Shown here: positions 9,941 to 64,000 of the stretch, one piece after another | Numbering within the stretch: the stretch's first letter is position 1 | How the letters are laid out: each line of letters begins with the position of its first letter | DNA from: Candidatus Poribacteria bacterium | GTDB lineage: Bacteria; Poribacteria; WGA-4E; WGA-3G | Assembly (NCBI GenBank): GCA_022820835.1 | Contig: JAJEET010000123.1 | Span: 3,608 to 67,607, forward strand | DNA: 64,000 nucleotides | Direction of reading: 5' to 3' | Position numbers and translations under genes: made by a program | The notes under the pieces: model-generated | Databases searched by the model: none | Told to the model about the DNA's origin: nothing | What the model saw: the letters and a program-made list of their open reading frames with translations, nothing else

Positions 9941-9963
9941 AAAAATATCTCCTTACAATATTA

Positions 9964-10058: not shown

Positions 10059-10118
10059 CTATTTCCAATATCAAGCCGAAATGGATTAGATACTAAGAAA
10101 AAAATACAAGTCAACTTT

Positions 10119-11355: not shown

Positions 11356-11793
11356 TCACTCACCATTTTCTTTTAATGCCTGTGTGAAATCATCTGCTGT
11401 TTCCACCCGCATCGCAGTGCGAAAGAGCTGCTTAAGACGCTGCAAATCATTAATCGTCTCCAAATCGGATTTAAAAGTTTCAGCGATTTCAGGCTGTAAT
11501 TGAAAGGCGAGTGCCTCAAGGATATTCTCACGAATAGTTTTTTGAGCCCCTTGTTGGATTCCTTGTTGGATTCCTTGTTCATGTGCTTCTGGTGCTAAGT
11601 ATTCAGCGATGGAAGATTGTTGCATGGTTTCCTCCGAAATGATCTCTAAAATCGTTTGTGCGTCATAAACTAAGTTTCCCAAAACTACAAGACTCCCAAG
11701 ATATTCCGGCTTGTTCGGAACGTCAATACTGTCCGCAGTTTGGACACAACGGCGAAGCCACTGTTTCGCGTTAGACGAGAATTTCGCCTGCCG
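11356..11793 (-). pseudogene. C-terminal remnant of an Rpn/DUF4351-type (PD-(D/E)XK nuclease family transposase-like) gene
   Basis: The frame is open from the stop at 11794..11796. It reads ..AKQWLRRCVQ..LVVLGNLVYDAQTILEIISEETMQQSSIAEYL..HEQGIQQGIQQGAQKTIRENILEAL..LQRLKQLF, the QQG-repeat plus helical tail typical of DUF4351 ends. The N-terminal nuclease part is absent. Confidence 0.5.
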
Positions 11794-11807
11794 CTATGCC
11801 TATAAGT

Positions 11808-12845: not shown

Positions 12846-12867
12846 AAAGATTTCTCCTTCAATACTA

Positions 12868-12961
12868 TTAGGACTTACGCGTCTTTTATCAAATCCCACA
12901 TAAAACGCACCGCAGGCGGGGTTTGAAACCCCGCCTGCAACGGGGACTGCGTAAGTCCTAA
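12868..12961. repeat. MITE-like element with GGACTTACGC terminal inverted repeats and a GC-rich hairpin (copy B)
   Basis: The TIRs are ttaggacttacgcg (12868..12881) and gcgtaagtccta (12949..12960). The hairpin is a perfect 10-bp stem, gcaggcgggg-tttgaaa-ccccgcctgc (12912..12938). Its position is the same as copy A, between paralog 5 stop and paralog 4 start. Confidence 0.75.
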
Positions 12962-13021
12962 CTATTTCCAATATCAAGCCAAATGGTTAGATGTCCACAA
13001 AAGAAAATACAAGTTAACTTT

Positions 13022-14065: not shown

Positions 14066-14182
14066 AAACTGTCTCCTCGACATCCTTGATGTGAAAAATC
14101 AAAACCACATTAATAAAAAATGACAGATTGTATAGGTTAACAGCGGAAACTGATTTTGTCAAGCATTACTTCGGGATCGCTC

Positions 14183-15223: not shown

Positions 15224-15270
15224 AAGTGTTGCCTCCGGCACTCCTATAGAAAAGTGTAAAGAAATGTTAT

Positions 15271-25479: not shown

Positions 25480-25572
25480 AATTCTTACCCCATAGGTCGA
25501 TTTAGTGATTTTTCACATAGATATAACTGCCGCTTCTCTTGCTAACCGCTGATGGAAACCGACGACTGACTG

Positions 25573-26349
25573 CTATTTACCCATTTCCTTGAGTGCCTTC
25601 AGACAGCGTTCAACAGCCTCAAGTGGCGGGTAGGCATCGCTTTCGTATTCAACGATGTACCATTCTGTGCCACCGGTCGTCTCGCAGATACGGAAGATCT
25701 CATCCCATGGCACACTGTCTTCACCTATAATCGGACGAAAACCGGCGTGTCTGTCCGTCTCACCTATTGATTCGGTGTAAGGCTTGAGATGAACTGTGCC
25801 AGCGCGTCCGGGGTATCTCTCCAGAATGTCGACGAGATCGGCACCACCAGATAGCGCATTGCCCATATCCAGCTGCATCACAACGCCTTCGTTCGTGTTT
25901 CCAAAGAAGGTATCCCACTGAATTTCGCCATCCATAGGTGAAAATTCGGCGTGGTGATTATGATATCCGGTTACCATGCCGTGCGGTTCGAGTTTGTCGG
26001 CGATCCCATTGAAGACATCTGCCAACTTCAACCAATCTGCTCTTGACTGACGCAGTTCACCCGGTATACCGGGGACGATGATATAACGGTTCTCCAGGAC
26101 CTTGTTGAATTCAATCGTTTCGGCGAGTGTATCTTCTTGCACGAGATTGAACGGCGTGTGCCAGCCACAGCAGACCAGACCGAACTCGTCAAGATAGCCT
26201 CTTAATTCTTCGGCAGGATGTTGCGGGGGACCAGCAAACTCAACGCCTTCGTAACCCATCTCCGCGACCGCTTTGATCGTGCCTCGGGCATCCTCTGCTA
26301 ACTCATTTCGGACAGAAAATAGTTCTAAACCAATTGGTACTCTTGACAT
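25573..26349 (-). CDS. Sugar phosphate isomerase/epimerase (xylose isomerase-like TIM barrel)
   Basis: The sequence IGLELFSVRNEL..GYEGVEF..GYHNHHAEF..LDMGN..VHLKP is the typical metal-binding pattern of the family. Confidence 0.8.
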   Translation of the reverse strand: MSRVPIGLELFSVRNELAEDARGTIKAVAEMGYEGVEFAGPPQHPAEELRGYLDEFGLVCCGWHTPFNLVQEDTLAETIEFNKVLENRYIIVPGIPGELRQSRADWLKLADVFNGIADKLEPHGMVTGYHNHHAEFSPMDGEIQWDTFFGNTNEGVVMQLDMGNALSGGADLVDILERYPGRAGTVHLKPYTESIGETDRHAGFRPIIGEDSVPWDEIFRICETTGGTEWYIVEYESDAYPPLEAVERCLKALKEMGK

Positions 26350-32896: not shown

Positions 32897-33059
32897 TCAA
32901 TGCCTCCATTAATAGTTATCAGTACGGAATCGGGTACGATTCCTTTCAGTTATCGGTTATCAGTTAAAAGAGGGTTGTGATAATTCCACAAGTCTCTTTC
33001 TGACAACTGAAAGGTTTTTCGCAGAAAACCGTACTGAAAACTGTTAACTGCGTACTCGC
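32897..33059. repeat. Composite palindromic intergenic element (two hairpin modules in opposite orientation, heptamer arms, AAGAG/CTCTT inner stem)
   Basis: The hairpin modules lie at 32920..32949 (+) and 33007..33036 (-). Between them are cagttat/cggttat/cagtt, then aaagag..ctcttt, then ctgacaactg. The end reads ctgttaactgcgtactcgc and abuts the stop of the next CDS. Confidence 0.75.
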
Positions 33060-35837: not shown

Positions 35838-35858
35838 TTCTTTTTTCCTCGGGAATGG

Positions 35859-35958
35859 CAGTCAGCAGTCAGCAGTCAGCAGTCAGCAAAGAGAAGAAAC
35901 GTTTATTTAACGCTTGCGTCTTTGCTGATGGCTGATGGCTAATGGCTAACGGCTAATT
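35859..35958. repeat. Palindromic element: (CAGTCAG)x4 arm, inner stem-loop, (GCTRAYG)x5 arm
   Basis: There are four perfect tandem heptamers at 35859..35886. The inner stem is gcaaag..ctttgc. The right arm gctgatg/gctgatg/gctaatg/gctaacg/gctaatt (35924..35958) runs into the 3' end of CDS 35939..36559. Confidence 0.8.
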
Positions 35959-38914: not shown

Positions 38915-38935
38915 TAACTTATAACTTATAACTTA
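38915..38935. repeat. (AACTTAT)x3 perfect heptamer array upstream of pyrE
   Basis: aacttat aacttat aacttat lies directly before the pyrE start. The same unit recurs at 44146..44173 and, as cttataa, at 51731..51758. Confidence 0.8.
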
Positions 38936-38945
38936 TAATCAACAA

Positions 38946-39464: not shown

Positions 39465-39590
39465 ATGGCTAGCGGCTGTCGGTAAGAATGGCTATCGGCT
39501 TTCAGCAAAGAGGCACTCGTTTAATCAAAAGTCTCTGGCTGACGGCTGACGGCTAATCTGCTGACAACTGATAGCCATCCATACGAAAGC
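39465..39590. repeat. Composite palindromic element with GGCTGAC/ATGGCTA-type heptamer arms
   Basis: The left arm is atggcta/gcggctg/tcggtaa/gaatggc/tatcggc. The centre is cagcaaagag..ctctggctg. The right arm is ggctgac/ggctgac/ggctaat/ctgctga/caactga/tagccat. Confidence 0.7.
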
Positions 39591-40379: not shown

Positions 40380-40495
40380 GTAGCCGACAGTTGTCGGAAA
40401 CCTTCAGAAAAGAAAACTCTCACTGCAAGGCAGTTTTATAACGCTTGCATCTTTGCTGACTGCTGATGGCTGACAGCCAATGGCTAATGACTAAC
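40380..40495. repeat. Composite palindromic element (GCTGAYK heptamer arm abutting the xseA start)
   Basis: It begins tagccgacagttgtcggaaaccttcag. The shared core tttataacgcttgcatctttgctga compares with 35903..35928. The arm gctgact/gctgatg/gctgaca/gccaatg/gctaatg runs from 40455 to 40495. Confidence 0.7.
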
Positions 40496-41737: not shown

Positions 41738-41833
41738 TGCCACATCTAAACGGAAACTGATAACTGAAAACTGAAAGGTTTTCGTAGTAAACCGTACTGA
41801 GTACTGACAACCATTTCCCAATGGAGATACTAA
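41738..41833. repeat. Intergenic element with AAACTGA heptamers and one hairpin module
   Basis: aaactga/taactga/aaactga lies at 41754..41774. It is followed by the module ctgaaa-ggttt-tcgtagt-aaacc-gtactg (41771..41799, minus orientation). Confidence 0.7.
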
Positions 41834-42028: not shown

Positions 42029-42141
42029 ATAGCACTCCTTAAAGTTCCCGCTATGGGGAATTTAGGCGGTTTATAGCAATACCTGCAATTAACGATACAT
42101 CATAGAAATTGGGTTTCAGACCCGCTACATAATACAACACT

Positions 42142-42180
42142 GCAGGCGAGGTTTCAAACCCCGCAAAATAATAGGATTTA
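42142..42180. repeat. Decayed partial copy of the GC-hairpin MITE-like element immediately upstream of dxs
   Basis: gcaggcgagg-tttcaaa-ccccgc followed by aataggattta. Its orientation relative to the downstream start codon is the same as copies A and B. Confidence 0.5.
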
Positions 42181-42183
42181 TAC

Positions 42184-44037
42184 ATGTTCTTAGAAAAAAT
42201 TAATACCCCCGCAGATCTTAAAAAACTTGAAATAGATGAACTTAAAGTCCTCGCGCAAGAGATGCGCGACTATCTACTAACAGTCCTATCTGAACATGCC
42301 GGGCATTTCGCCCCTAACTTCGGAACCGTCGAATTAGCAATAGCCTTGCATGCCGTCTTTGATACACCACGCGATAAAGTTATATGGGACATCGGACATC
42401 AGGCATATCCACATAAACTGCTAACAGGGAGGAGAGAAGCGTTCCCAACACTCAGACAGAGTGGAGGCATCAGCGGATTCCTCACCAGATCAGAGAGTGA
42501 ATATGACGTTTTCGGTGCAGGGCATTCCAGTACCTCTATCGCCGCCGCATTAGGTATCGCCACCGCACGAGACCTCATTAATGAAACTTACAAAGTCGTC
42601 GCAGTGATCGGGGATGGCGGGTTAACTGGTGGCATGGCGTTTGAAGCATTGAACGCCGCAGGCGACTTCAAGAACGATATGGTCGTTATCCTCAACGATA
42701 ACAACATGTCCATTTCTGCAACTGTCGGTGCATTCTCAAAACATTTCCACAAACTCACAAGTTCACCACAGTACAACTTCCTACGCTCTGGCGTCAAAGA
42801 GTTGCTGAACTTAATACCAGCAGATGCAACGCAGATCGCACGCAAAATTGAGGCATCATTGAAACCCGGCACCCTATTTGAGGAATTCGGGTTCCGATAC
42901 TTCGGACCCCTCGACGGAAATGACTTAAAAGCACTGATTCCAGTGCTAACCGGTATCCGTAAACTCACAGGTCCTATCCTGCTCCACGTCGTAACCGAAA
43001 AAGGACGCGGCTACGCACCCGCAGAAGCTGACCCAGTCGGGTTCTATAGTGTCAGTGGTCCCTTCAACCTGAAAACGGGAAAAACTCTGAAACCAAAACC
43101 GCCGATACCGACCTATACGGAAGTGTTCAGCCGAACACTCATTGAACTGGCGAAACGCGACGCACGCGTCGTCGGTGTAACCGCAGCGATGCCGGGCGGA
43201 ACTGGATTGGATAAATTCGGCAACGCCTTTCCGAATCGATGCTTCGATCTCGGATTGGCGGAACAGTGCGCCGTCACGTTTTCCGCAGGACTCGCAGCAC
43301 AAGGAATGCGTCCCGTCACCGCGATTTATTCGACCTTCCTTCAACGGAGTTACGACCAAGTCCTACACGATGTCTGCATCCAAAAACTCCCCGTTGTCTT
43401 CGCTTTGGATAGAAGTGGACTCGTCGGGGCAGACGGTCCAACACACCACGGGGTCTTCGATCTGGCATTCCTCCGTTCAATCCCAAACATCGTCGTGATG
43501 GCACCGAAAGATGAAAACGAATTACAATCTATGGTCAAGACCGCACTCACGTATGAAGAGGGACCCATTGCGTTCCGTTACCCACGCGGGACAGGCATCG
43601 GTGTAAAAATCGCAGCAGAGCCGGAATCCATACCCATCGGAGAAAGCGAAATTGTCAGAGAGGGCAACGATATACTTGTCATCGCTATTGGGAACCGCGT
43701 CTATCCAGCACTTGAGGCAGCACAGACGTTAGCCGATACCGGTATTTCCGCAACGGTTGTCAACGCGCGATTTGTAAAACCGTTAGACACTGCAACAATC
43801 CTGCCGCTCGCGGAACAGATCCGCAAAGTTATTACGATTGAAGACGGTGTACGCATGGGCGGGTTCGGGAGTGCAGTTCTGGAGGCTATCGCAACTGCTG
43901 GTATCACAGACATTCAAGTTATGAACCTCGGTATCCCTGACGAATTCATTGAACACGGTGATATACAACATCTCCATGCACTATGTCAATGCGATGCTGA
44001 CGCTGTTGTCCGCACCGCAGAGAAAATGCTAAAATAG
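42184..44037 (+). CDS. dxs: 1-deoxy-D-xylulose-5-phosphate synthase
   Basis: It reads INTPADLKKL..DIGHQAYPHKLLTGR..GHSSTSI.AALG, has the TPP motif GDGGLTGGMAFEALN..LNDN, and has DRSGLVGADGPTHHG. Confidence 0.95.
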   Translation: MFLEKINTPADLKKLEIDELKVLAQEMRDYLLTVLSEHAGHFAPNFGTVELAIALHAVFDTPRDKVIWDIGHQAYPHKLLTGRREAFPTLRQSGGISGFLTRSESEYDVFGAGHSSTSIAAALGIATARDLINETYKVVAVIGDGGLTGGMAFEALNAAGDFKNDMVVILNDNNMSISATVGAFSKHFHKLTSSPQYNFLRSGVKELLNLIPADATQIARKIEASLKPGTLFEEFGFRYFGPLDGNDLKALIPVLTGIRKLTGPILLHVVTEKGRGYAPAEADPVGFYSVSGPFNLKTGKTLKPKPPIPTYTEVFSRTLIELAKRDARVVGVTAAMPGGTGLDKFGNAFPNRCFDLGLAEQCAVTFSAGLAAQGMRPVTAIYSTFLQRSYDQVLHDVCIQKLPVVFALDRSGLVGADGPTHHGVFDLAFLRSIPNIVVMAPKDENELQSMVKTALTYEEGPIAFRYPRGTGIGVKIAAEPESIPIGESEIVREGNDILVIAIGNRVYPALEAAQTLADTGISATVVNARFVKPLDTATILPLAEQIRKVITIEDGVRMGGFGSAVLEAIATAGITDIQVMNLGIPDEFIEHGDIQHLHALCQCDADAVVRTAEKMLK

Positions 44038-44180
44038 TTATAAGTTATAAGTACGGTTTTTCTGCGAAAAACCTTTCAGTACTCAGTTAAAGAGGTTCTC
44101 TGTGGCAACCTTCACAGAGAACAGAACTGTTCCAAGAACCTTCTTAACTTATAACTTATAACTTATAACTTACCACCATT
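44038..44180. repeat. ~140-bp nested palindromic element (GTTATAA arms, hairpin module, 10-bp inner stem)
   Basis: The left arm is gttataa x2 (44038..44052) and the right arm is aacttat x3-4 (44146..44173). The hairpin module lies at 44051..44079. The inner perfect stem is gttctctgtg / cacagagaac. Confidence 0.8.
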
Positions 44181-45188
44181 ATGCAACGGATAGACACTTT
44201 TCTGGTAGAACACAATTTAGTTGACAGCCGCGAACAAGCGAAACGACTCATCTTGGCAGGCGCAGTAACAGTTAACGGAAACGCCAACATCAAGCCGGGA
44301 CAGCGGATTCCCGATGACGCAGAGGTCATCGTTAAAGAACGCCAAAAATATATCAGTCGTGGCGGGTTCAAACTCGAAAAAGCGTTAAGCACCTTCAATG
44401 TAAACGTGCAAAATCGGGTCGCACTTGATGTAGGGGCATCTACCGGCGGATTTACAGATTGTCTCCTCCAACACGGGGCAAAATTCGTCTATGCCGTTGA
44501 TGTCGGATACGGACAACTCGCATGGAAACTACGAAAACACCCGCAGGTACAGTCTATTGAGAAGACGAATATCAGACATTTAACGCTGCCACTTTTAAGT
44601 AGAGGCGAGGCTACCTCAACCCTACACTTGACCAAGAACTCGTGCCTTAGCAAAAATATCGGTAGCCGAGTTCTTGGTCAAAGCGAAGACTTTATCTCTA
44701 TCGCTGTGATTGACGTCTCCTTTATTTCTCTACGGACGGTTTTGCCGAGCGTCATCAAACTCTTGACACAGCAAAATAGCCGTCAGTCGTCAGCCAACAG
44801 CCGTCAGCAAGAGAGCTCTGGTTTAACAAACAACCTCTTAACTGACGGTTTCCGAAAGCCGATGGTTTCCGACAGTCATTATGATATCATCGCACTGCTC
44901 AAACCGCAGTTTGAAGCCGGAAAAGCACACGTCAAAAAAGGTGGGATTGTGTCCGATAAACAGGTGCATATCGAAACAATAGACAACCTCAGCACTTTCG
45001 CTACGGAGAAACTCGGCGCGACGGTACAAGGGGTAACCTATTCACCAATCCATAAAGCTATCGGTAATATTGAGTACCTGCTATGGCTAACGATGGAGCC
45101 AAATATACAAACGGATGCATTCGGAGATGAAACACCGCAAACGACGGCTGAAGTCGTCGCTGAGGCACACGATTTTTTCAGGGGATAG
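44181..45188 (+). CDS. tlyA: TlyA-family 16S/23S rRNA (cytidine-2'-O)-methyltransferase carrying two repeat-derived in-frame insertions
   Basis: It has the S4 domain RIDTFLVEHNLVDSREQAKRLILAGAV.VNG, then YISRGGFKLEKAL, LDVGASTGGFTDCLLQHGA..VYAVDVGYGQLAWKLR, DVSFISL, KPQFEAGK and GNIEYLLWL. It is about 60 aa longer than typical family members. Confidence 0.85.
   Translation: MQRIDTFLVEHNLVDSREQAKRLILAGAVTVNGNANIKPGQRIPDDAEVIVKERQKYISRGGFKLEKALSTFNVNVQNRVALDVGASTGGFTDCLLQHGAKFVYAVDVGYGQLAWKLRKHPQVQSIEKTNIRHLTLPLLSRGEATSTLHLTKNSCLSKNIGSRVLGQSEDFISIAVIDVSFISLRTVLPSVIKLLTQQNSRQSSANSRQQESSGLTNNLLTDGFRKPMVSDSHYDIIALLKPQFEAGKAHVKKGGIVSDKQVHIETIDNLSTFATEKLGATVQGVTYSPIHKAIGNIEYLLWLTMEPNIQTDAFGDETPQTTAEVVAEAHDFFRG
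44628..44683. repeat. Perfect 15-bp-stem palindrome inside the tlyA coding sequence
   Basis: ttgaccaagaactcg (44628..44642) pairs with cgagttcttggtcaa (44667..44681). A near-identical copy is intergenic at 57419..57471 and carries a compensatory G/C swap in both arms. Confidence 0.8.
44778..44876. repeat. Complete heptamer-armed palindromic element (99 nt = 33 codons) inside the tlyA coding sequence
   Basis: The order is agccgtc/agtcgtc/agccaac/agccgtc, then aagag..ctctt, then ctgacgg/tttccga/aagccga/tggtttc/cgacag. This is the same architecture as the intergenic elements at 39465..39590 and 40380..40495. Confidence 0.7.
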
Positions 45189-45190
45189 CG

Positions 45191-48100
45191 ATGCGAAAAA
45201 GAATCCAAAAAATCTCCATTTTCATCGGAATACCTCTTATCATTCTGCTATGCGGTGCGCTGGTGTTCGTCCAATCAGAAAGTTTCCGCAATTGGGTCGA
45301 AAAAAGGCTTGAGACGGAATTAAGAAACCGGCTAACAGACAACTACACCTTCAACATCGGGAACATAAAAGGCAGCGTTTTCGGGAATGTTACCATCAGT
45401 AACGTTAAAATATCTGAAATCTCCAAAGCAGATGAACCCGTAATTTCCACACAAGAAATCGTACTCAACTACAGTCTGATGCAGTTACTCAGACGCAAAG
45501 TTGAAATTAAAAAACTGACAGTAGACGATCCAGAAATCCATGCGAAGACTGATCTCGACGGCACACTCAATCTGTCCAATATATTTCGGAAGAACCCATC
45601 AAATGAGGATGCTCCACAATTCAGTTTCGCCATTGAAGACGTTAGACTTAATCGCGGAAAGATTGATTACACGGATACGCAAAGAGACCTTGAGATAAGC
45701 GTCCAAGGGGTTACGCTTACGGTGAAAGGACCACTCGATACATGGAATCACACAGGCGATTTAAGCATCGAGACTGGCAATTTTAAGTTCAACAGTTCCG
45801 AAACACCAATTGATAAGTTTGAAATTGATTTTCAGATTTTAGCCGACAGTAGCAGATTCGAGAGCCTCTTAGATTTTGGCAACTCAAGATTGTTCGCTGC
45901 AGGGCGATTTCCGTATAAATCAACGCAGAGACATTGGGGAATTAACCTCGATTTACAGCGATTAGATGTCGCAGATATAGAGCGATTTTTCGGCGAAGGC
46001 ACCGAACTTGAAGGCATTGTAAAAGGTTCTATAACTGCAAACGGAAAACTTGATTCCGCCTTCGCTGCTGCACTCGCTGTGGAAACCTCGTCCTTTTCTT
46101 TAACACAAACCGAGAACAATAGACACATCGCGTTGACAGACCTAAAAATTGATGCCGGTTTCAATTTACAACCGATCCCAACATTCACACTAAAGGATTT
46201 CAGCGCACAGATCGCCGACGGTGCCCTGACCGGCAGCGGAAGTATCGGACTCCAAAACCGCCCAGAAGGCGATGTTATCGCGCAGCTTCGGCAACTCACA
46301 ACGCACCCACTTGCCTATACAGGGCAGTGGGAGGCAACGGATGCCCAACTCATACCGCTGCTGTCAATGTTCGTTCAGCTGCCCAGCTTCCTTGTAGACA
46401 GTACCGGACACCTCTCAGGAAACACCACGTTCAACGGAAGCAGCACCGACATTTCAACGCTCAATCTCGATAGCAGGTTAGAGATAACAGATACCATCCT
46501 CAATTCGGTCGCACTCCAAGACTCCTTAATCAATTTCAAAATCCAGGATGGCGTATTGAACACAAGTGGACACCTCGATGAAACGATCATTGCCGTCACC
46601 GGTCCCTTCACACTAACTGAGCAAGACACTCTGGACATCCGTATATCCAATATCAACTTCGACGATCTCATGAAAATTGTCAATAGCGCGGATTTCGGTG
46701 GAACCGGTGAATACACCGCCAAGTTGTCATCGGACGGCAAACTAAACGGATATATGAAAATCCCAAACGCGAATTTTTTCGACATCCCGATCGGTGTATT
46801 GACTGGCAATTTCAACTACCACAATGGACAGGTCTTCATCGAAAACGGACGACTCACCAAAAACACGATAAACGATATCGGGACAGACTATACGAGTCAA
46901 GCCGCAATCACCGGTGTCGTAGATGTTGAGGGTGAGTTTCCCGCACAACTCAGCGTCATCGCTAATCCCGTTTATGTTCAACACTACCCAAAGTTATTGT
47001 TAGGGGCAGAATATCCGGTAACCGGTCAAATCAGAGGCGAACTCAAATTAGACGGAACGCTCATCAACCTCGATGGTGCTGCCGACTTCAGTGTTACAGA
47101 GGGTATCGCATGGGGACTCCATTTGGATCCCTTCACTCTCCCCTTGCGCATTGAGGATTACTACCTCACACTTCCCGATGCAAAAATAACCACCCGCGGA
47201 CAGAAAATTACGCTTAACGTGGCGGTCGCACCGAACGCAGACTTTGATTTCCGACTCGAAAGCGATGCACCTGTGAATTTTCAGGAACTTTCCAAGGCTG
47301 CACAAATTTCCAACTTCCCTTTCGACGGACAATTTGATGTCTCGGTCATCGGCACATTCAAGCAACCACAACCGCTCGATTTTCAGATCGAACTCGACTT
47401 CAAAGACATAACCTATGTAGACTTTGAAGACAATGGAGACGTTAAGAGGTTTCCACTCGGGGACGCGGTCTTGCACGGTGAACTCGTAGAACTGAAAAAT
47501 ACCACCGGTGAAACTGACCGGTTTGACTTTACAGGAAATGGGTTCAGCGGTCAGATTCAAGGCTACGTAAGCATGGCTCTGGACAACCCTTACAAGTTTA
47601 CAGTGGAAACAAACGGACTTGAAGTTAAACCGTTCCTGCGTATCCTGCACCCCGCTTTTGAGACAGTCACCGGTGTCGCCGACGGGCGCGCACAGATAGC
47701 AGGAACCGTGACAGACCTTGTAGGAGCAACCGAAAATACATCTCCTAATCCTGATGAACAACGCATCTTCCCCTATAGCGTCGATGTTGAAATAGACACA
47801 AGCCAACTTTACTACGGGGACACCAGAGGACGGCCCGTTCCATTCACAAATGCAGAACAGATCCAGATACGTCTTAGAGACGATGTATGGAGGATTGACA
47901 CACTCTCTTGTAGGACATTAGAGGACACGTCACCTTTTATCGAACTTACTGGGACCTTTGACCAGAAAAATGACACGATGGATATTCACGCCAAAGCGGA
48001 CGGATTCGCTTTATCGGCTCTCGCACCAGCATTCGGACTCGTTCCTGAAGACATATCCGCTGGCACCGGACACTACACCGTAGAGATTGATGGTTCCCCA

Positions 48101-51589: not shown

Positions 51590-51766
51590 TAGCGGGTACG
51601 CAGTTATAGATACGGATTTCTGCGAAATCCTTTTAGTTAACAGTTAACAGTTAAGAGGGCTCTTGTACTTATAACTGAAAGTGAGCGTAGCGAATGTACT
51701 ACGTACTTACAACTTTAAATCAACCACGTACTTATAACCTATAACTTATAACTTATAACCATTCCA
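51590..51766. repeat. Composite palindromic intergenic element between tamB-like and bamA-like genes
   Basis: It contains gggtacgcagtta (51594..51606), the hairpin module at 51611..51636, gttaaca x3 (51636..51656), ctgaaagtgagcgtagcgaat, and cttataa/cctataa/cttataa/cttataa (51731..51758). Confidence 0.8.
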
Positions 51767-54700
51767 ATGTACACATCGTTCCTACATTACAGATCAATAA
51801 CTCGCTCACTCTCCGTTCTAATGCTTTGCGTTTTTTTCGGACAATCTGCAAGCGCAGCGGAAGAACTTTCTGAGCATCCAAGCGCAGAGAAAATTACCCT
51901 ACACGAGGCGTTTGACGCAACGCGTATCATAAAAATTGTGTATTACATTGATGGGATACTTGTCTCCGAGACAACAACACAACTCAGACCCCTCAGCAAC
52001 CGATCAGCGGTACATGTCGGCGCCAAATTATCTCAGCACGCCATCCAACAGAGCATTAAGCTACTCTACAAAACACAGCAATTTTCCCAAATTCAGGTTT
52101 ATGAGCAAGAGACCCCGAATGGCATAATCTTAACATATCAATTCACATCCTTTGAACCTATCAAAGCGATTAAACATATCGGTATCCTTGAGAACGACGA
52201 ATTTGAACAAACTATTCAGGACGTAATGAAATCGAAAGTTGGCGGAAAATATGTCCCGGCAATCGCGAAAGCCGATATTAAACGTATCAAACAGGTCTGT
52301 GAAGATTATGGGTATTTCAACGCACGAATTACGGTCTCTGACGCGCTAACTGATGACGGGATGTTAACTTACCAGATAGATGTAGGTGTACCATCTATTA
52401 TCCGTGAATTGCAAATTCAGGGCAACCAAGCCATCTCAACGGGCCACCTTAAAGCAGCTTGCGGATTCAGTAACCAACAACCTTCTCCGATTTATAACAA
52501 ATCCGACGTAGATACCGATGTGGCAGCCATGCTGAAACTCTATCGAGAAAGCAGCTATCCTACCGCTGGCATCGAATCAAACTTTATACCTGAAACCGGC
52601 ATCCTACAGTTTCGTGTTGATGAAGGCAAAGAGATAACGTTCAATTTCGTCGGTGACCTTTCGTTATCGCAACAAGATACATTCGAAGAAGATATAGCCA
52701 ACTTGATAAACGCTGCAACCCAGTCTATGTGGAAGAGAAGGATAAAATCTTATTTTGAAGACTTGGGGTATCAAGACACAACCGTCGAAAGCCTGAATGA
52801 AACCAGCGTTCGGCTTACGATTGATCCCGGTACGCAATACAGGGTTGCCAGCGTTACTTTTTCCGGAAACCGTGTGTTCTCGGACGCAGACCTCCTACGA
52901 GAGATGACAGTCAAACCGACGAGCGGCCTTAGGCGTAACTTACAACTTTCCAATGTTATCACACAACTGCTACCGGGACAAACACAGAAACCTTTTTTCG
53001 ATCCACAGGATCTTGATACAGATGAACATCGACTCAGGATTTTATACGAAAAAGCAGGCTATCCGAATCGTGACATACAGACGTATGTTGAGAAACAGCC
53101 ACCAAATAGACAAAATATCGGTGAAGCTGCAATACATGTTTTAATTAATGAAAACTATAAAGAGGTCATTCACCGATGTGAGATTACCGGTAATCGAGCG
53201 ATAGATACTGCCAAACTCCTAAAACGTTTGGAAAAAGAACTGCCGCTCCCGCAACCGAATGCACGCTTTGAAAAAACGGTCTACCAAAACGCGCTCCTAA
53301 GTGTATATCGTGAGCTCGGATACAATGACGTGGAGGTTAAGAACACTTATATCCCTGAAACAGAAACACCAATTTTTCGAGTCGCAGGCGATTTTTCGGA
53401 ATCGCTTGCCGATGGGGAGCTCCCACCCGAACTTCAAAACGAATTTGAAAAACACAAACGACCCCTGAGCGGACTTTTCATCGCCAATAATATCGACAAT
53501 CGTTGGAGCATCCAAGATATTGAGAGCAACCCGCGTTATACACTCATACAAGAAACGACAGAACTGCAGGTATTTGAACACGGTATCCTACATCTTACCG
53601 TCAATAAGGAAGGTGAACAGGTCACATTCGGCAAATTCTATTTTCAAGGCGACACCGACGTTGTGATACGCCGTATTCTTGAACGGGAAGTAGCACATCT
53701 TAACGGTAAACTTTGGACACCAGAGGCGTTAAGCCTTGCCTTGCGAAATCTTGACAGTTTAGGCATCTTCCGTAAAATTGAAGCCACGCCACTCGAAACC
53801 GCTGTAAACAGTACAACCAACGGCAACTCTCCTTCCACAGTAAAAACTAAAGACGTTGTTATAACAGTCGAAAAACAACAACCGAGAACTTTTAGATACG
53901 GTGCCGGTTATGGGATCGCAGAAGGGTGGCGCACCACTTTAGAACTAACTGATAGCAACTTTCTCTTTAAGCGAAATGTACGAGGGCGCGTCCGCGGTAG
54001 ATTAGCATGGCGAGATGAACTCGGATACCTTCTCGAAGCAAGAATTACACAACCCTGGTTAATCTGGCGGATACAAGGTAGTCTACAAGCATCCGCTAAA
54101 AAGTTAGAGGTAGACGATAATGTACGCGCACTCGAAGGCAGCTTCATCCTCAACAGGCGATTAAGGGAATCGAATTACTTAGATTTCCGATACAGTTACC
54201 GAGATTTGAACCAACCGATACTACCGATAATGCCAGACCTCTCACCCGCAACCGGTGTTTTTGAAGAACAGAACCCATTCCGCACAACGGTGAGCAGCTT
54301 ACGCCTCTCGTGGACTTATGATAGCCGTGTACAGTTTCTGAATCCGGTAGGCGGTATGTTCAACGAGATTACACTCGAATATGCCGGAGGTTTCCTGCAA
54401 GGCGAAACCAGTTTTATTAAAACGACAACGGATACCCGATATTACCAAAAACTCATCGGAGATTTCGTATTAGCGACCGTACTACGATTGGGGGTTACCA
54501 CTGGATTACGTTCAAATCGTCGTGCCGAACTTATTTCGTTTGAACGGTTCTGGGCTGGCGGCGGCACAACGGTTCGCGGGTATGCCGAACGATCCCTCGG
54601 ACCCGAAGACATCGCTGGCACCCACCGGGGCGATGTTCAATTCATCTTTAATACAGAGTTACGATTCCCGATCTATTGGTTAATCCGGGGCGCACTCTTT

Positions 54701-54901
54701 TTCGATACAGGCAACGTCTGGGATTCATTGGAGGATATCAGAACGATGCCGATCACACAACTACCATCGGCAGCGGGTGCCGGACTCTATTTGGACTTTG
54801 GCGCATTCACATTCGGGGTCGACTATGCCTTCCCGATCGTCCACGTTCCGAGCTCGCCAGACACAAGACGCGCCCACTTTCGTCTCGGTAGTACTTTTTA
54901 A
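51767..54901 (+). CDS. bamA: BamA/Omp85-family outer membrane protein assembly factor (1044 aa, extended POTRA region)
   Basis: It has a signal peptide and repeated POTRA-like units (I..I.I.GN..). The C-terminal barrel reads ..FERFWAGGGTTVRGY..FNTELRFPI....GALFFDTGNVW.. and ends ..FRLGSTF. Confidence 0.85.
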   Translation: MYTSFLHYRSITRSLSVLMLCVFFGQSASAAEELSEHPSAEKITLHEAFDATRIIKIVYYIDGILVSETTTQLRPLSNRSAVHVGAKLSQHAIQQSIKLLYKTQQFSQIQVYEQETPNGIILTYQFTSFEPIKAIKHIGILENDEFEQTIQDVMKSKVGGKYVPAIAKADIKRIKQVCEDYGYFNARITVSDALTDDGMLTYQIDVGVPSIIRELQIQGNQAISTGHLKAACGFSNQQPSPIYNKSDVDTDVAAMLKLYRESSYPTAGIESNFIPETGILQFRVDEGKEITFNFVGDLSLSQQDTFEEDIANLINAATQSMWKRRIKSYFEDLGYQDTTVESLNETSVRLTIDPGTQYRVASVTFSGNRVFSDADLLREMTVKPTSGLRRNLQLSNVITQLLPGQTQKPFFDPQDLDTDEHRLRILYEKAGYPNRDIQTYVEKQPPNRQNIGEAAIHVLINENYKEVIHRCEITGNRAIDTAKLLKRLEKELPLPQPNARFEKTVYQNALLSVYRELGYNDVEVKNTYIPETETPIFRVAGDFSESLADGELPPELQNEFEKHKRPLSGLFIANNIDNRWSIQDIESNPRYTLIQETTELQVFEHGILHLTVNKEGEQVTFGKFYFQGDTDVVIRRILEREVAHLNGKLWTPEALSLALRNLDSLGIFRKIEATPLETAVNSTTNGNSPSTVKTKDVVITVEKQQPRTFRYGAGYGIAEGWRTTLELTDSNFLFKRNVRGRVRGRLAWRDELGYLLEARITQPWLIWRIQGSLQASAKKLEVDDNVRALEGSFILNRRLRESNYLDFRYSYRDLNQPILPIMPDLSPATGVFEEQNPFRTTVSSLRLSWTYDSRVQFLNPVGGMFNEITLEYAGGFLQGETSFIKTTTDTRYYQKLIGDFVLATVLRLGVTTGLRSNRRAELISFERFWAGGGTTVRGYAERSLGPEDIAGTHRGDVQFIFNTELRFPIYWLIRGALFFDTGNVWDSLEDIRTMPITQLPSAAGAGLYLDFGAFTFGVDYAFPIVHVPSSPDTRRAHFRLGSTF

Positions 54902-56105: not shown

Positions 56106-57185
56106 CTATTCGGAATGCGAAGGCTCACGTTTTCGGAAAAGCTGGATAGAACCATAGCCGATAACGAAAAGTAGGATTGTCGCTTGCATCACAAAGGTGA
56201 CTTTATCAGAAATCCCCACCGTTCGCTGCATACTGTATGAGCCAGTCGATAACGCACCAAACAACAGTGCAGCAGCAACCGTTACCAAAGGATTCAACTT
56301 CGCCAACAATGCCACCGCAATCGCTGTATAGCCATATCCCGGTGAGAAATTGAGAAATAAACGACGGGTCAGTGCTGTCAGTTCAATCGCGCCACCGAGC
56401 CCAGCAAGTGCACCACTAATGAAAAAGACACGAAGCGTGTTATGCACAATCGAAATCCCTGCTGCTTCCGCTGCAGCTGCACCCTCTCCTACAGCGCGGA
56501 GTTGGTAACCAAACGCTGTCCGAAATAGAATAAACGTAAGGACAATCGCTAACACGACAGCGATAACAATGCCGAAGTGGATCCGATGCGGCGGAAAAAG
56601 TCGTGGGAGAAATACCCACTCCACAATCCGATCGCTCTGTGGCCCTCGCTCGGATGCCTCCTGTAACGGACCCCCATCTATCATCATGCTGACCAGATGG
56701 ATAGCGACGTAATTCAGCATAATCGTACTAATCACCTCGTTGACACCACGTGTCACCTTGAGAACAGCCGGGATAAGTCCCCATACGCCCCCCGCGAGCA
56801 TCGAAAGGACAAGACACACTGGTACTGCAATCCATGTATTCTCCGGAAACAGCGTGGCAAGTCTCGTCCCGAACCATGTCGCTGCCAATGCGCCTATCAG
56901 AAACTGCCCTTCCGCACCGATGTTCCAAATACCGCAACGAAACGCCATAGCGACGGAAAGTCCAGTCATCAGAAACGGCGTGCTTTTTACCAATGTTTCA
57001 CCGAATTTCCGACTGTTCCCGAAGGCACCACTCAGTGCTGCTTGATATGCCTCTAAAGGGTTGTAGTTACACAGCAGCATTATAACGGCGTTAACCATAA
57101 AAGCACCCGCCAGAATTATAAAGGGCGCCATCAACCAGTGAATAATGTTGATTCTTTTTAATATGTTGACTAATTTCGATACCAT
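56106..57185 (-). CDS. ABC transporter permease (nucleoside/BMP-family system, YufP/NupP-like)
   Basis: 359 aa. It reads ..TPFLMTGLSVAMAFRCGIWNIGAEGQF.. and has multiple TM segments. Confidence 0.85.
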   Translation of the reverse strand: MVSKLVNILKRINIIHWLMAPFIILAGAFMVNAVIMLLCNYNPLEAYQAALSGAFGNSRKFGETLVKSTPFLMTGLSVAMAFRCGIWNIGAEGQFLIGALAATWFGTRLATLFPENTWIAVPVCLVLSMLAGGVWGLIPAVLKVTRGVNEVISTIMLNYVAIHLVSMMIDGGPLQEASERGPQSDRIVEWVFLPRLFPPHRIHFGIVIAVVLAIVLTFILFRTAFGYQLRAVGEGAAAAEAAGISIVHNTLRVFFISGALAGLGGAIELTALTRRLFLNFSPGYGYTAIAVALLAKLNPLVTVAAALLFGALSTGSYSMQRTVGISDKVTFVMQATILLFVIGYGSIQLFRKREPSHSE

Positions 57186-57590
57186 GTTTTAAGCGAGTAC
57201 GCAGTTATAAGTATAGGACTTACGCATTTCCTCTTAAAGTCCCCCTGATAAGGGGGATTTAGGGGGTTTAAAGAACGAAAATTACCGATTTTTGCGTCTA
57301 AATGCTCGATATTTGCTCAATTTGCGTAAGTCCTGAAGTACTCACTACGGTTGCTGCGCAACCTTTCAGTTTTAGAAGTTAACAGTACTCAGTACGTTCG
57401 CTACGCTCACTTTCAGTTTTGACCAACAACTCGTGCCTTAGTAAAAGTATCGGAGTCGAGTTGTTGGTCAAAGTTAAGAGGTGTTGGAATTATCGCATCC
57501 CTCTTTTAACTGTTAACTGCGTACTGAAAGGCGTACTCGCCGTACTGAAAACTAATGCCCTGAAAGGCGTACCCGCCGTACCGTTAACTG
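57186..57590. repeat. 405-bp composite repeat region inside the ABC transporter operon
   Basis: It contains gagtacgcagtta (57195..57207) and a 124-bp TIR element (57213..57336, aggacttacgc / gcgtaagtcct). It has three full hairpin modules (57345..57369, 57524..57547, 57560..57583) plus a variant with the same GTAC/TTTCAG flanks at ~57390..57416, and the 15-bp-stem palindrome (57419..57471). The end reads ccgttaa/ctgttaa/ctgcgta. Confidence 0.85.
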
Positions 57591-59180
57591 TTAACTGCGT
57601 ACTCGTTCTCCCGTCATTAGCAACCCAAGTGCTTCAATATCGTTGCGCTGTGCTGTCGCCTCAATCAATTGCCCCCTTGACATCACAAAGAGCCGATCGC
57701 TCAATAGCAACACCTCATCTAACTCCGTTGAAATGAGCAGCACAGACTTTTCTTGGTCGCGTTGGGTCAACAAATTCTCGTGTACGTAACGAGCCGCGTT
57801 GACATCTAAACCGCGTGTCGGATTAACAGCGATAAGTAAGTCGGGTTGAAGCGAGATTTCGCGGGCGAGGACAATCTTTTGTTGATTACCGCCAGAAAGC
57901 GCGGAAACAGGGATATTGCCGATAGGTGGTCGAATATCATAATCAGCGATAAGTTGGCGTGCTATATACCACTTTCTTCTTTGATTCAGGACATTCCAGT
58001 GGGCTATATTTTCCAAGTGCGTTACATTCAGTAAGAGATTCTCTGTAACCGAAAACGACGCAATAACACCCGTTGTTTGTCTATCTTCGGGGATATAACC
58101 GACGCCACGCCGCCGCACAGCCTTTGTCCCCTTCGGATCGGCACCCAAGATATTTATTGTTCCAGAGGCATTGTGCCGTAACCCCATGATCGCTTCGGCG
58201 AGCTCCCGCTGCCCGTTGCCATCAACACCAGCAATACCGACAATTTCACCACGATACGTCTCCAGAGTGACATCTGAGACCGAAATCTCGTTGCGACTGC
58301 CGTGCACCGTTAGATTTGAGAGTTGCAGCACGCTGTCTGATGATCCACTTTCGCGGTTTCCGTTTGACGAACGCTCAACTTCGTCAATGTCCTCTCCGAT
58401 CATCTCCCGCGCGAGTTCTCGCGCGGTGAGTTCACCTGTCGGACCGAGATAGACCTTTTTCCCGCGCCTCAACACGCTAATCCTGTCGCTGATACTCAAA
58501 ACCTCTTTCATCTTGTGACTAATGAAAATAATCGCCCTGCCATCGGCTTGGAGTTTGCGCAGAATTGTAAAGAAGCCTTCCACCTCTTGCGGACTCAGAA
58601 CAGCCGTCGGTTCATCAAGGATGAGAATCCGAGCATCAACCGCCAGTGCCTTTAAAATTTCAACGCGCTGTTTCAGTCCGACCGACAGTGTTCGGACAAA
58701 TGCAGTCGGATCAACGGTTAAACCGAACCGCTCAGAGAGTGCTTGCGTGATACGAATCGCTTCCGTCTTCTTGAACACAAATTTCCGCCACGGCTTCTTA
58801 TCCGTATCGTTTGTAGACGCATCTTCTGTTGTGTGAACACGCACTTGTCCAAGACTCAACGCGATGTTCTCAGCAACTGTGAGGTTCTCAATCAACATAA
58901 AGTGCTGATGCACCATGCCGATGCCGTTAACAATCGCGTCACGTGGCGATTTCGCACGCAGTCTACGCCGCCAGCCCTCACGATCTGTAACATAGATGCG
59001 TCCCTCCGACGGTTGATAAAGTCCATAGATAAGATTCATCAGCGTAGACTTACCGGCACCGTTCTCACCTAAAATAGCGTGAATCTCACCCGCTTTGAGG
59101 TCAAAATCGACGCTATCAACAGCGGCGAAATCGCCGAAGGTCTTTGTAACATTCCGAAGTTCAAGGATGTTTTCTGCCAT
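57591..59180 (-). CDS. ABC transporter ATP-binding protein with duplicated ATPase domains (nucleoside/sugar type)
   Basis: Walker A is GENGAGKST and the signature is LSVGLKQRVEI, followed by ILILDEPT. The second domain has GVDGNGQ, LSGGNQQK and a second Walker B-like stretch. Confidence 0.9.
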   Translation of the reverse strand: MAENILELRNVTKTFGDFAAVDSVDFDLKAGEIHAILGENGAGKSTLMNLIYGLYQPSEGRIYVTDREGWRRRLRAKSPRDAIVNGIGMVHQHFMLIENLTVAENIALSLGQVRVHTTEDASTNDTDKKPWRKFVFKKTEAIRITQALSERFGLTVDPTAFVRTLSVGLKQRVEILKALAVDARILILDEPTAVLSPQEVEGFFTILRKLQADGRAIIFISHKMKEVLSISDRISVLRRGKKVYLGPTGELTARELAREMIGEDIDEVERSSNGNRESGSSDSVLQLSNLTVHGSRNEISVSDVTLETYRGEIVGIAGVDGNGQRELAEAIMGLRHNASGTINILGADPKGTKAVRRRGVGYIPEDRQTTGVIASFSVTENLLLNVTHLENIAHWNVLNQRRKWYIARQLIADYDIRPPIGNIPVSALSGGNQQKIVLAREISLQPDLLIAVNPTRGLDVNAARYVHENLLTQRDQEKSVLLISTELDEVLLLSDRLFVMSRGQLIEATAQRNDIEALGLLMTGERVRS

Positions 59181-60683: not shown

Positions 60684-60777
60684 AGAGGACTTACGCAGCC
60701 CTCTTTGCAAGCGAGGTTTGAAACCCCGCCTGCAGGGTGTCGGATGTCCGTTATCATGGAAAAATACGTAAGTCTTG
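60684..60777. repeat. MITE-like element with GGACTTACGC TIRs and GC hairpin (copy C, partly decayed)
   Basis: It runs aggacttacgc (60686..60696), gcaagcgagg-tttgaaa-ccccgcctgc, then acgtaagtct (60766..60775). It lies upstream of the BMP-family SBP gene. Confidence 0.65.
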
Positions 60778-61921: not shown

Positions 61922-64000
61922 ATGACGCACATAATGGAAATTGATGGGATTGAAGTTACCTTTTCCGAAGGCGAAACCATCCTTGAAATCGCACAACGCC
62001 ATCAAAAAGAGATTCCAACGCTCTGCTACGACCCAAGACTTGAGCCTTTCGGTGGGTGTCGTCTTTGCATTGTCGAGTTAGAAGGTGCGCGAAACCCTGT
62101 TACATCCTGCACAACAAAGGCAACTGCAGGGATGGTCGTGCGAACAACAACTGATACAATAGAGGCATACCGGAAAACGCTCCTGGAAATGGTTGTTAGC
62201 GAGAATCGTGAAGTTGATGTGTCACCGTTGCGCGGCTACGCGTCAGGTGAACTCGCGGACCTCCGCGACAAGTACAGCACTAACGGTACGAGCATAACAG
62301 GGGCGACATCTGGAACGAGCAAGACTGATGATGATAACCCATTCATTCTCAGGGATTACGAACTCTGCATCTCCTGTTATCGGTGCGTCCGTGTCTGTGC
62401 TGAACAAGAAGGCGACCATGCGATCAACATCATGAACCGCGGCTTCCATACACAGATTACGACTGAATTCAACGGGCTCCTAAAGGACTCTGCCTGCACC
62501 TTCTGTGGACAGTGTATCCAGACCTGTCCGACGGGTGCGCTCGGCGATAAAAAAGCACTCCGCGCAGCCGACGAGGTGGTGGATACTATACCTGACAAAA
62601 CCCGCACGATCTGCCCGTATTGTGGGGTCGGTTGTTCGGTTGATATATTGACGAAAGACGACAAGATTGTCGGTATCCACCCAGCGATGGACGGACCTGC
62701 GAATCAGGGAGCACTCTGTGTTAAAGGTCAGTTCGCTTACGACTTCGTACAGCATCCTGACCGCTTGAAAACGCCACTCATCCGTGGCACCGATGGCGAA
62801 CTCCACGAAGCAACATGGGACGAGGCGTTGAACAAAGCCGCTGACGGATTTCGGAAGGTCAATGCCGAACACGGGAGGCATAGCATCTACGGTATCGCCT
62901 CAGGGCGCGCGCCCAGTGAAGCGGCGTATCTCATGCAAAAGTTTATCCGCGCAGGGTTCGGCACTAACTATATTGATAACTGCAGCCGTGCTTGACACGC
63001 ACCGACCGTTGCCGGTCTGGCAGCGACAATCGGACGCGGTGCTATGTCTAATCCACTCGTTGACATGCAAAAGCCGGATGTGATCTTCTGCATCGGCACA
63101 AACATGACCGAGTGCCATCCTGTTGCAGCAACGGGACTTAAGAAAGCAATTGCCCGCGGTGCGAAACTCATCGTCGCAGATCCGAGACGCATCGGTTTAG
63201 CAGAGATGTCGCATCTCTACTTACCGCTCCGTGTCGGTTCGGATACCGCACTGCTCCTCGGCATGGCACACGTCATCGCACGTGAAGGCTTAATTGACGA
63301 AGATTTCATCGAAAACCGCACGACCGGGTTTGACGAGTTCTTTGAACACATCAGTCAGTGGACACCAGAATGGGCGGAAACGATTACGGGTGTCCCCGCA
63401 AAGGACATTGAAACCGCCGCGATATGGTACGGGAGCACAAACAAGGGTGCTATCTACTACACACTCGGAATCACGGAGCATATCTGCGGCGTTGAGAACG
63501 TGCAGAGTCTATGTAACATCGCTTTGATGACGGGGAACGTCGGGCGCGAGGGAACCGGCATTAACCCGATGCGCGGGCAAAATAATATCCAAGGCGCAGG
63601 AGACAGCGGCGCACTGCCAAACAACTACCCCGGTTTCCAATCTGTCACAGATCCGAAGCATCAAACGAAGTTCAAAGCAGAATACGGCAGAGAAATCGAT
63701 TTAGAGAAAGGGATTACCAAAGTAACCGCTTTAGAACTTTGCGGTGAAAGCATCCACGCGATGCTGATTGACGGTGAAAACACGTTGCTCTCCGACCCAG
63801 ATCGCGAGCATTGTGAACATGCACTCCGCGCATTAGATCATCTCGTTGTTGTTGACATATTCCTCACGGAGACGGCTAAACTCGCCGATGTCGTGTTACC
63901 AGCGACTGCATGGGGTGAAACGGATGGCGTATGCACAAATACAGAACGCCGCGTCCAACGCGTCCGCGCGGCAGTACCACCCCCCGGTGTCGCAAAACCG
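61922..64000 (+). CDS. fdhA: Formate dehydrogenase alpha subunit (NAD-linked FdsA/FdhF-like) with in-frame UGA selenocysteine; 3' end outside window
   Basis: It has an N-terminal 2Fe-2S region (C..GGCRLC), 4Fe-4S motifs (CISCYRCVRVC, CTFCGQCIQTCPTG) and the molybdopterin Fe-S motif CPYCGVGC. The track ORF ends at TGA 62993. The same frame stays open to 64000 and reads ..DNCSRA-U-HAPTVAGLAATIGRGAMSN.., the FDH active-site motif. Confidence 0.85.
63007..63025 (+). other. Candidate SECIS stem-loop
   Basis: cguugcc-ggucu-ggcagcg: a 7-bp stem (one G-U pair) with a 5-nt GGUCU loop, starting 11 nt after the UGA. This is the spacing and loop type I recall for the E. coli fdhF SECIS. Confidence 0.6.

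Follow-up and report, generated by a model that had tools for sequence, protein, structure and literature searches.

The tlyA locus and its product

We analyzed a stretch of 64,000 nucleotides (nt), referred to here as the window, from a Candidatus Poribacteria bacterium (GenBank assembly GCA_022820835.1, contig JAJEET010000123.1, positions 3,608 to 67,607), in which the tlyA gene carries two in-frame segments built from the same palindromic repeat units that lie between genes. We conclude, with high confidence, that palindromic modules that are mobile in Poribacteria landed in tlyA and are read as loops of an enzyme whose core is under purifying selection.

The gene occupies 44181..45188 on the forward strand and encodes 335 amino acids in a frame that is open throughout, both inserts included, as the original prediction from the bare sequence had stated. 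Its product matches the Pfam domains S4 (residues 2-43) and FtsJ (residues 57-303, E = 7e-38), the latter with 179 profile positions stretched over 247 residues. The closest solved relatives are 3hp7 (E = 5e-58) and Mycobacterium tuberculosis TlyA on the 50S subunit (7s0s_B, E = 2e-45), and TlyA structures rank at the top of a Foldseek search with the predicted model. The protein has the features of the TlyA family, namely the S4 domain and class I FtsJ-like methyltransferase fold, the K-D-K-E tetrad (K64, D178, K241 and E298), the S-adenosylmethionine (SAM)-binding motif DVGASTGGFTD and the rRNA-contact residues. Among 43 orthologues, neither the tetrad nor the SAM motif varies, and nor do R3, R17, R60, R132 and F181, which correspond to R6, R20, R65, R137 and F157 of the M. 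tuberculosis enzyme; Y110 (M. tuberculosis Y115) is nearly invariant. These equivalents were mapped through the PDB alignments (3hp7 and 7s0s) and a published account of M. tuberculosis TlyA, in which all six residues contact rRNA and R137 touches the tip of H69 (PMC9168844). The open reading frame (ORF), the two domains and the PDB matches bear out the earlier assignment of a 335-residue TlyA-family protein, predicted to be a 16S/23S rRNA (cytidine-2'-O)-methyltransferase; the targets typical of the family are C1409 of 16S and/or C1920 of 23S rRNA.

Several observations bear on the integrity of the gene. An independent assembly (the Logan assembly of SRR16351690) contains an identical tlyA nucleotide sequence, and the order xseB-dxs-tlyA-tamB is kept among poribacterial loci, including long-read contigs labelled circular. 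Compared with L001, a locus from a different metagenome, the window gene shows seven synonymous and two nonsynonymous differences outside a swapped cassette described below, and as far as sequence can tell this is the pattern of purifying selection on the catalytic core. The window TlyA looks functional, and its inserts look like loops.

Two insertions in a conserved fold

Two stretches of the protein have no counterpart in TlyA from unrelated taxa. At site 1, residues 134 and 169 align with residues 142 and 149 of 3hp7, leaving about 28 extra residues, and at site 2, residues 196 and 235 align with residues 176 and 180, leaving about 35. The alignment with 7s0s_B breaks at the same two places, and neither structure has residues at the positions of the inserts. 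These figures equal those of the original prediction, which had been judged against a Bacillus YqxC-type sequence. In the AlphaFold model, the core has block-mean predicted local distance difference test (pLDDT) values mostly between about 60 and 90, and residues 142-168 and 202-231 fall below 50 and are modeled as coil with no secondary structure. The structure prediction that had been proposed as a check therefore yields low-confidence coil around a well-folded core. Insert 1 lies between a short helix (136-139) and a strand (172-180), and insert 2 between a helix (181-207) and a strand (234-241). From the topology of class I methyltransferases, the insertion points would correspond to the N-terminal ends of beta4 and beta5, on the face opposite the active site, and the model suggests that the insert loops are disordered and surface-exposed.

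Insert 1 has two parts. The upstream part (44601..44627), encoding RGEATSTLH, is seen in the orthologue alignment to be a decayed version of a small GC-rich hairpin module that reads GGGCGAGGTGACCTCGCCC in relatives; this module is missing in the shortest alleles (P0011, P0050 and P0053) and duplicated in P0006 and P0014 (SRGEVTSPLSRGKVTSPL). The remainder is a perfect 54-nt palindrome (44628..44681) of the form TTGACCAAGAACTCG-N24-CGAGTTCTTGGTCAA, with fully complementary 15-nt arms (44628-44642 and 44667-44681) and a 24-nt loop (44643-44666), translated in frame as LTKNSCLSKNIGSRVLGQ. Its RNA fold has a predicted free energy of -27.5 kcal/mol (z = -6.05 compared with shuffles). Six matches to the arm with at most two mismatches are present in the window, compared with 0.23 expected, and none of 100 shuffles reaches six. 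Two arm-like matches at 12279 and 13499, with two mismatches each, lie in paralogous GFO_IDH_MocA genes without a partner arm and were treated as chance. The palindrome has an intergenic twin at 57419..57471, as originally proposed, found by blastn and by the arm search (89% identity over 56 nt, E = 2e-14). The twin has a 23-nt loop and one change in each arm, G>C and C>G, that keeps the pairing; it adjoins a AGTTAAGAGG..CCTCTTTTAACT stem. The compensated stem and the 23-nt loop define a subfamily that is also seen in L007, L045, L047 and L048.

Insert 2 lies within a cassette at 44768..44879 on the forward strand, the edges of which are set by comparison with L001. Its left arm (44778-44808) is a period-7 AGCCGTC array of 4.4 copies with 75% matches in Tandem Repeats Finder (TRF), followed by a short paired stem of AAGAG (44809-44813) and CTCTT (44835-44839). 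GGTTTCC units break up the right arm (44840-44876), whose complementarity is degenerate. The insert had been described as having the full architecture of the intergenic elements; the heptamer left arm and the stem hold, but the right arm is degenerate and the fold weak, and we conclude that the window copy (44778-44876) is a decayed heptamer-armed element of the intergenic type. Clean versions are found at site 2 of other alleles. In L005, the order is (AGTTGTC/AGTCGTC)n - AGTTAAGA..TCTTAACT - (AGCCGAC)n, with the 54-nt palindrome placed between the CTCTTAACT stem and (AGCCGAC)n. In L007, it is (AGCAGTC)5 - AGCAAAGACGC..GCCTCTTTCTTTGC - (GAxAGCC)n, a type that the window also has between genes, at 35858-35957.

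The spaces between genes in the window are rich in related units. ORFs of at least 150 residues make up 88% of the window, and of roughly 12 period-7 arrays only the one in tlyA is not intergenic. Heptamer-armed intergenic loci occur at 3465-3583, 32942-33056, 35858-35957, 38915-38938, 39465-39563, 40439-40494, 41755-41805, 44036-44172, 51591-51763 and 57186-57605. The left arm of insert 2 matches the arrays at 25535-25578 and 39532-39563. Nothing else in the window matches it as closely as the latter, a GGCTGAC-type array found by TRF and by blastn on the reverse strand (28 nt at 89%, E = 5e-5). The 143-nt spacer between dxs and tlyA, which is only 19 nt in the syntenic locus L002, is itself a composite element (44036..44172, fold z = -7.7). 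Its heptamer arms are of the AGTTATA/ACTTATA type, its stem is AAGAGG..CCTTCTT, and a GGTTTTTCTGCGAAAAACC hairpin is nested within it. Read on the reverse strand, this hairpin encodes the peptide KVFRRKT, which is found at site 2 in many TlyA orthologues. This direct similarity, together with the presence of the same palindrome at the other tlyA site and in other genes, supports the earlier claim that the inserts consist of the same units as the intergenic repeats.

Filled, empty and swapped alleles

Across 120 aligned poribacterial TlyA proteins (303-381 amino acids), two hypervariable sites stand out from a remainder that is 65-90% identical. The contents of the two sites form a mosaic that does not follow the core tree. 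At site 1, the palindrome peptide (LTKNS-x8-RVLGQ) is found in P0001, P0002, P0007, P0013 and P0018; P0031 and P0095 have it at site 2, where P0117 has a copy diverged by one residue (LTNNS..RVLGQ). Near-empty alleles also occur: at site 1, L002/P0011 reads NIRHLTATLLNRSDDF, and at site 2, L004/P0101 reads QQNSRPSD. The proposed alignment of orthologues thus provides both insert-free outgroups and near-empty poribacterial alleles, which identify the segments as insertions. We also observed that site 1 of P0008, P0027, P0057, P0113 and L004 holds a KKSAEIRRNTQA/KTP-type peptide that has expanded in tandem. The underlying DNA in L004 is of the AAATCCGCAGA type and repeats about every 11 nt, adding a third repeat type to the same permissive loop.

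Sister alleles define the event at nucleotide resolution. At site 1, L042 reads '...cta cac GAC agc gaa...' and L007 reads '...cta cac [54 nt] agc gaa...'. At site 2, L044 reads '...tta acc GAC agc cga...' and L043 reads '...tta act [54 nt] agc cga...'. In each filled site, 54 nt stand in place of GAC before AGC, a net gain of 51 nt. These filled and empty pairs indicate that the 54-nt palindrome entered two different places of tlyA.

Whole cassettes have also been exchanged. The window and L001 share 99.3% identity across the 3.6 kb that end at 44767 and 98.5% across the 3.3 kb that start at 44880. In L001 (3588-3693), an unrelated 106-nt element, also in frame, takes the place of the intervening 112 nt (44768-44879). 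It is a member of the family to which the spacer element upstream of tlyA belongs, and it contains a nested hairpin, GGTTTTTCGCAGAAAAACC, read as KVFRRKT. Since the breakpoints fall exactly at the cassette edges, the comparison suggests replacement at the level of the element and not ordinary allelic recombination.

Two models of the junction were considered and rejected. AACT/AGTT flanks many intergenic copies and resembles a target-site duplication, but filled and empty pairs outside arrays show no duplication and have lost GAC, and the apparent duplications are attributed to the periodicity of the surrounding heptamer arrays. The observed net gain would also follow from a 4-bp duplication with subsequent loss of a heptamer (58 - 7 = 51), but there is no array at tlyA site 1.

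Spread among genes and genomes

We scanned one genome per species in 185,579 species for exact copies of both arms. The scan found 35 perfect copies in 34 loci, all of 54 nt. Thirty-three of the loci have names that place them in Poribacteria, and the remaining one has no label beyond 'uncultured bacterium'. Twelve of the 35 copies lie in frame inside ORFs of at least 200 residues, a result that bears on the survey of other coding sequences called for in the original prediction. The genes include those for a ROK kinase, RdgB, RsmG, a penicillin-binding protein, PGM and a metallo-beta-lactamase-fold hydrolase, among others. In all six in-ORF copies tested (ROK, Lactamase_B, Ham1, PGM_PMM, Transgly and GidB), Pfam domains flank the element or are split around it. 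Inserts at the tlyA sites are seen in more than 100 poribacterial orthologues.

The reading of these copies is restricted. The palindrome is free of stops in two of three frames, and its main loop family is open in both orientations in the LTKNS..RVLGQ frame. Eleven of the 12 in-ORF copies use the LTKNS frame, and the RsmG copy is read in the remaining open frame (LDQEL..SSWS); none is read in the third, which begins T-TGA. A second loop family (RLFLNIGN) contains stops in its reverse reading, and its coding copies are found solely in the forward orientation. Among coding copies of the main loop family (L008-L041), about eight have the polar STDNFAKA reading and about two the RLSKIICR reading. 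These numbers are small; the bias may mean that one strand is more acceptable to selection as protein than the other.

The RdgB gene parallels tlyA. Many alleles of 195 residues have an empty site (EMLRLEATAEQQIEVISL), others have heptamer-armed inserts, and a subset of these has the palindrome nested within them. The readings REPITDNQYE and REPTT[LTKNS..RVLGQ]NQYE show that the element stands where other alleles have D. The palindrome thus occupies the place of a GAC (Asp) codon in three independent contexts, namely the tlyA pairs L042/L007 and L044/L043 and RdgB (alleles P0131/P0143 compared with L019). A decayed palindrome, read as LTINSSTDTFAKETRVDGQ, was also observed in frame in the TamB-like gene just downstream of tlyA (L002 6549-6605 and L003 5949-6005); orthologues of this gene range from 2131 to 2190 residues and may contain further inserts.

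The palindrome stem covaries. Across the copies compared, which include four loci from a metagenome scan for both stem variants, the variable stem position shows 44 paired combinations (40 G/C and 4 C/G) and none unpaired. When up to three mismatches per arm were allowed, there were 17 compensated arm changes and five one-sided ones. Two of these five, in tlyA copies (ctt>ctc in L001 and aag>aaa in L006), are synonymous, as would be expected if copies settled in coding sequence drift as codons and those that still propagate have to stay symmetric. Solo arms did not exceed chance, with four found at two mismatches in 371 kb.

Other repeats in the window

A second small hairpin family, whose reverse-strand reading is the KVFRRKT peptide of many TlyA orthologues, occurs at 44049-44085, 33006-33042, 41764-41800, 51598-51627, 57337-57420 and 57513-57581. 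Its flanks (GTAC..CTTTCAGT) and TGCG-type loop are conserved, and its stems vary yet stay paired (GGTTTTTC/GAAAAACC, GGATTTC/GAAATCC and GGTTGC/GCAACC). Another family, in which TTAGGACTTACGC...GCGTAAGTCCTAA outer arms surround a GCAGGCGGGGTTTGAAACCCCGCCTGC hairpin, is found at 12860-12965, 9956-10062, 60686-60734 and 42138-42164. Those at 12860 and 9956 share 87% identity over 107 nt, and each lies between paralogous GFO_IDH_MocA oxidoreductase genes. Seven such genes stand in tandem at 7829-15241 on the reverse strand, with repeat elements in some of the spacers. The copy at 12860-12965 was considered as an in-ORF insertion and rejected: the Pfam domain of the overlapping ORF begins at residue 47, compared with residues 1-18 in six paralogues, and the over-extended TTG start places the repeat between genes.

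Two further genes of the window show stretched domains. A protein combining an N6_N4 DNA methylase with HNH (4352-5755, reverse strand) has a methylase domain of 332 residues for 221 profile positions, and a BamA homologue (51767-54901, forward strand) has one POTRA domain of 105 residues for 78 positions. These stretches may be further lineage-specific inserts. Rfam searches of the whole window returned no family at the gathering threshold, with nothing at E <= 1 in 44000-45200 and one weak chance match, RAGATH-25 (16.9 bits compared with a cut-off of 49), in 57150-57650.

Interpretation

We propose that Poribacteria harbor a family of very small, nested palindromic repeat modules. A 'host' element would consist of tandem heptamer arms around a short AAGAG/CTCTT-type stem, and a 'guest' hairpin would land inside or beside it, the perfect 54-nt palindrome being one such guest. 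Copies would have landed in tlyA at two tolerant links, beta3-beta4 and alphaD-beta5, where they are presumably transcribed and translated within the enzyme, adding two polar, probably disordered surface loops. Survival in coding sequence could have three causes. The length change is a multiple of three, 54 nt for one GAC codon; two of the three frames have no stops, with the usual frame open in both orientations for the main loop family; and selection would purge any copy that disrupts the protein. The inserts would turn over fast, through fresh insertions, slippage of heptamers and exchange of entire cassettes, and the loops would hence vary between strains.

Several points weigh against this interpretation. 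Nearly every poribacterial TlyA has something at site 2, and most have an insert at site 1. The near-universal content of site 2 implies that the first insertion there is old, and a loop at this site may have some function. Insert 1 begins a few residues past R132, the equivalent of an rRNA-contact position, and its neutrality is assumed. The predicted fold of insert 2 barely exceeds those of shuffled sequences (z = -1.88, with nine of 200 shuffles folding equally well). A fold so marginally above chance implies that this copy has decayed, and it leaves its family assignment to rest on architecture, arm similarity and orthologue comparison. The filled and empty junctions have no target-site duplication and lose 3 nt, which matches no textbook mechanism of transposition, and we know of no transposition mechanism that yields a codon-replacing junction with a net gain of 51 nt. 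No transposase, integrase or RAYT turned up in Pfam searches of 40 of the window's 44 ORFs with 150 residues or more; three others (dxs, tlyA and the tamB-like gene) were identified by other means, and the ORF at 61922-62995 was not scanned. That full-length TlyA is made and active is a judgment from its sequence.

One alternative is that the loops are adaptive and lineage-specific, for example contacting a modified ribosome or a partner, with repeats that are incidental or co-opted and cassette switching that is itself selected. The prevalence of inserts at both sites, the position of insert 1 directly after R132 and the roughly 8 to 2 preference for STDNFAKA over RLSKIICR would fit this idea. 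However, the insert sequences are unconserved and can differ wholly between near-identical strains, near-empty alleles occur, the same units are found in functionally unrelated enzymes, and the inserts are predicted to be disordered. The one-sided synonymous decay of stems in coding copies also suggests drift. We therefore regard an adaptive origin as unlikely and tolerance of the inserts as the more natural assumption.

Growth in place, by slippage of heptamers or other short repeats within tlyA and with only convergent resemblance to intergenic DNA, is slightly less probable still. Slippage does contribute to changes in length, as indicated by heptamer copy numbers that vary between alleles, including the long (AGCAGTC)n and (GAxAGCC)n arrays at site 2 of L007, and by the KKSAEIRRNTQA-type expansions at site 1 of some orthologues. 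It cannot, however, repeatedly make a 54-nt unit with a specific 24-nt loop that is present at two tlyA sites, in other genes and in intergenic DNA, nor does it explain the interchange of unrelated whole cassettes between strains whose flanks match at about 99%.

We consider it very improbable that tlyA is a pseudogene or that the inserts are chimeras of a repeat-rich metagenome bin. Repeats are a well-known source of assembly errors, and the DNA here derives from a metagenome-assembled genome. Nevertheless, the ORF is intact, the catalytic and SAM-binding residues are invariant and the substitutions are seven synonymous to two nonsynonymous, which speaks against the split or decayed gene that had been named as a way the prediction could fail; the independent assembly is identical, and more than 100 orthologues are alike, among them long-read contigs labelled circular with conserved synteny. 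Equally remote is removal or skipping of the hairpins by RNA processing, translational bypass or protein splicing: the perfect 15-bp stem would form a very stable mRNA hairpin, but the inserts are always in frame and stop-free, which would be needless if they were removed, coding copies are confined to open frames and orientations (loop family 2 solely to its stop-free one), and we found no take-off/landing codon pair, intein motif or Rfam family.

Mobile modules read as loops are thus the interpretation we favor. A broader proposal, which we advance tentatively and rate at somewhat under an even chance, is that they represent an undescribed nested mini-palindrome system that routinely colonizes coding sequences (about one third of perfect copies), inserts by replacing a codon without target duplication and swaps cassettes between near-identical strains. 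If so, the proteome at large would draw a steady supply of novel, variable surface loops from selfish repeats, and the heptamer arms might act as built-in frame adjusters, as seven leaves a remainder of one when divided by three. Strains that are about 99% identical but have filled, empty or swapped alleles offer material for studying how loops are gained and how tiny elements move. In practice, such elements inflate and vary protein length and can mislead orthology and domain calls in metagenome bins; they can also serve as strain-level markers.

Comparison with known repeat systems

Our literature search found no paper tying Poribacteria to repeats of the kind described here. REP and REPIN elements, which are extragenic palindromes of 20-40 nt mobilized by RAYT transposases (PMC3116915, PMC3733652), resemble them in being short hairpin repeats with covarying arms and no target duplication. 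However, the 54-nt palindrome begins TTGACC and has no GTAG or CGTC head, one third of its copies are intragenic, and no RAYT was found in the scanned window ORFs. MITEs, or miniature inverted-repeat transposable elements, can also lie within genes, as described for ERIC, BOX, the Coxiella QMITE and Anabaena MITEs (PMC10969869, PMC3184786, PMC5896051). Like MITEs, the poribacterial elements are non-autonomous, have inverted-repeat ends (perfect 15-nt arms in 54 nt) and fuse in frame with host ORFs. Unlike MITEs, the palindrome shows no target-site duplication and is far below the typical size, with the whole unit forming one hairpin, and no cognate insertion sequence was found among the window ORFs or by the search for arms in 371 kb.

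The closest architecture is that of the cyanobacterial short tandemly repeated heptamers (STRR) and other small dispersed repeats, which are intergenic tandem heptamers, often in inverted arrays, with small nested palindromes and occasional copies in genes. With them go the cyanobacterial 'very small mobile repeated elements' reportedly described by Elhai et al. (2008, Genome Res 18:1484). The likeness lies in architecture alone, tandem heptamer arrays with nested small palindromes. The phylum and the sequences differ, as do the in-frame coding location of about one third of perfect copies and the strain-level switching of cassettes in a conserved enzyme. Heptamers are also over-represented in the intergenic DNA of Nostoc and Xanthomonas (PMC4692102).

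In behavior, the poribacterial elements come closest to the Rickettsia palindromic elements (RPEs). According to the account of Ogata et al. (2000) in PMC10969869, RPEs are dispersed palindromic repeats of about 100-150 bp that occur both between genes and in frame in unrelated housekeeping genes. The poribacterial elements share this dual location and hairpin potential, encode a recurrent peptide that is apparently compatible with fold and function, are missing from orthologues elsewhere and are predicted to lie at the protein surface. They differ in size (54 nt, or about 100 nt for heptamer-armed units), in their modular, nested architecture with tandem-heptamer arms, in their unrelated phylum and sequence, and in replacing a codon at the junction and swapping whole cassettes between strains. 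With perfect copies solely in Poribacteria among the genomes scanned, and with size, sequence and lineage all different, they are not members of the RPE family, a separation made without a consensus alignment. The parallel with Rickettsia drawn in the original prediction is therefore apt for how the elements behave and does not extend to membership, the nearer architecture being that of the cyanobacterial heptamer repeats. Palindromic selfish DNA in frame in housekeeping genes has so far been regarded mostly as a Rickettsia curiosity, and an independent, more modular case in an uncultured, sponge-associated phylum suggests that the process is more general. The poribacterial elements work like RPEs, in a new phylum and with a smaller, nested and heptamer-armed architecture.

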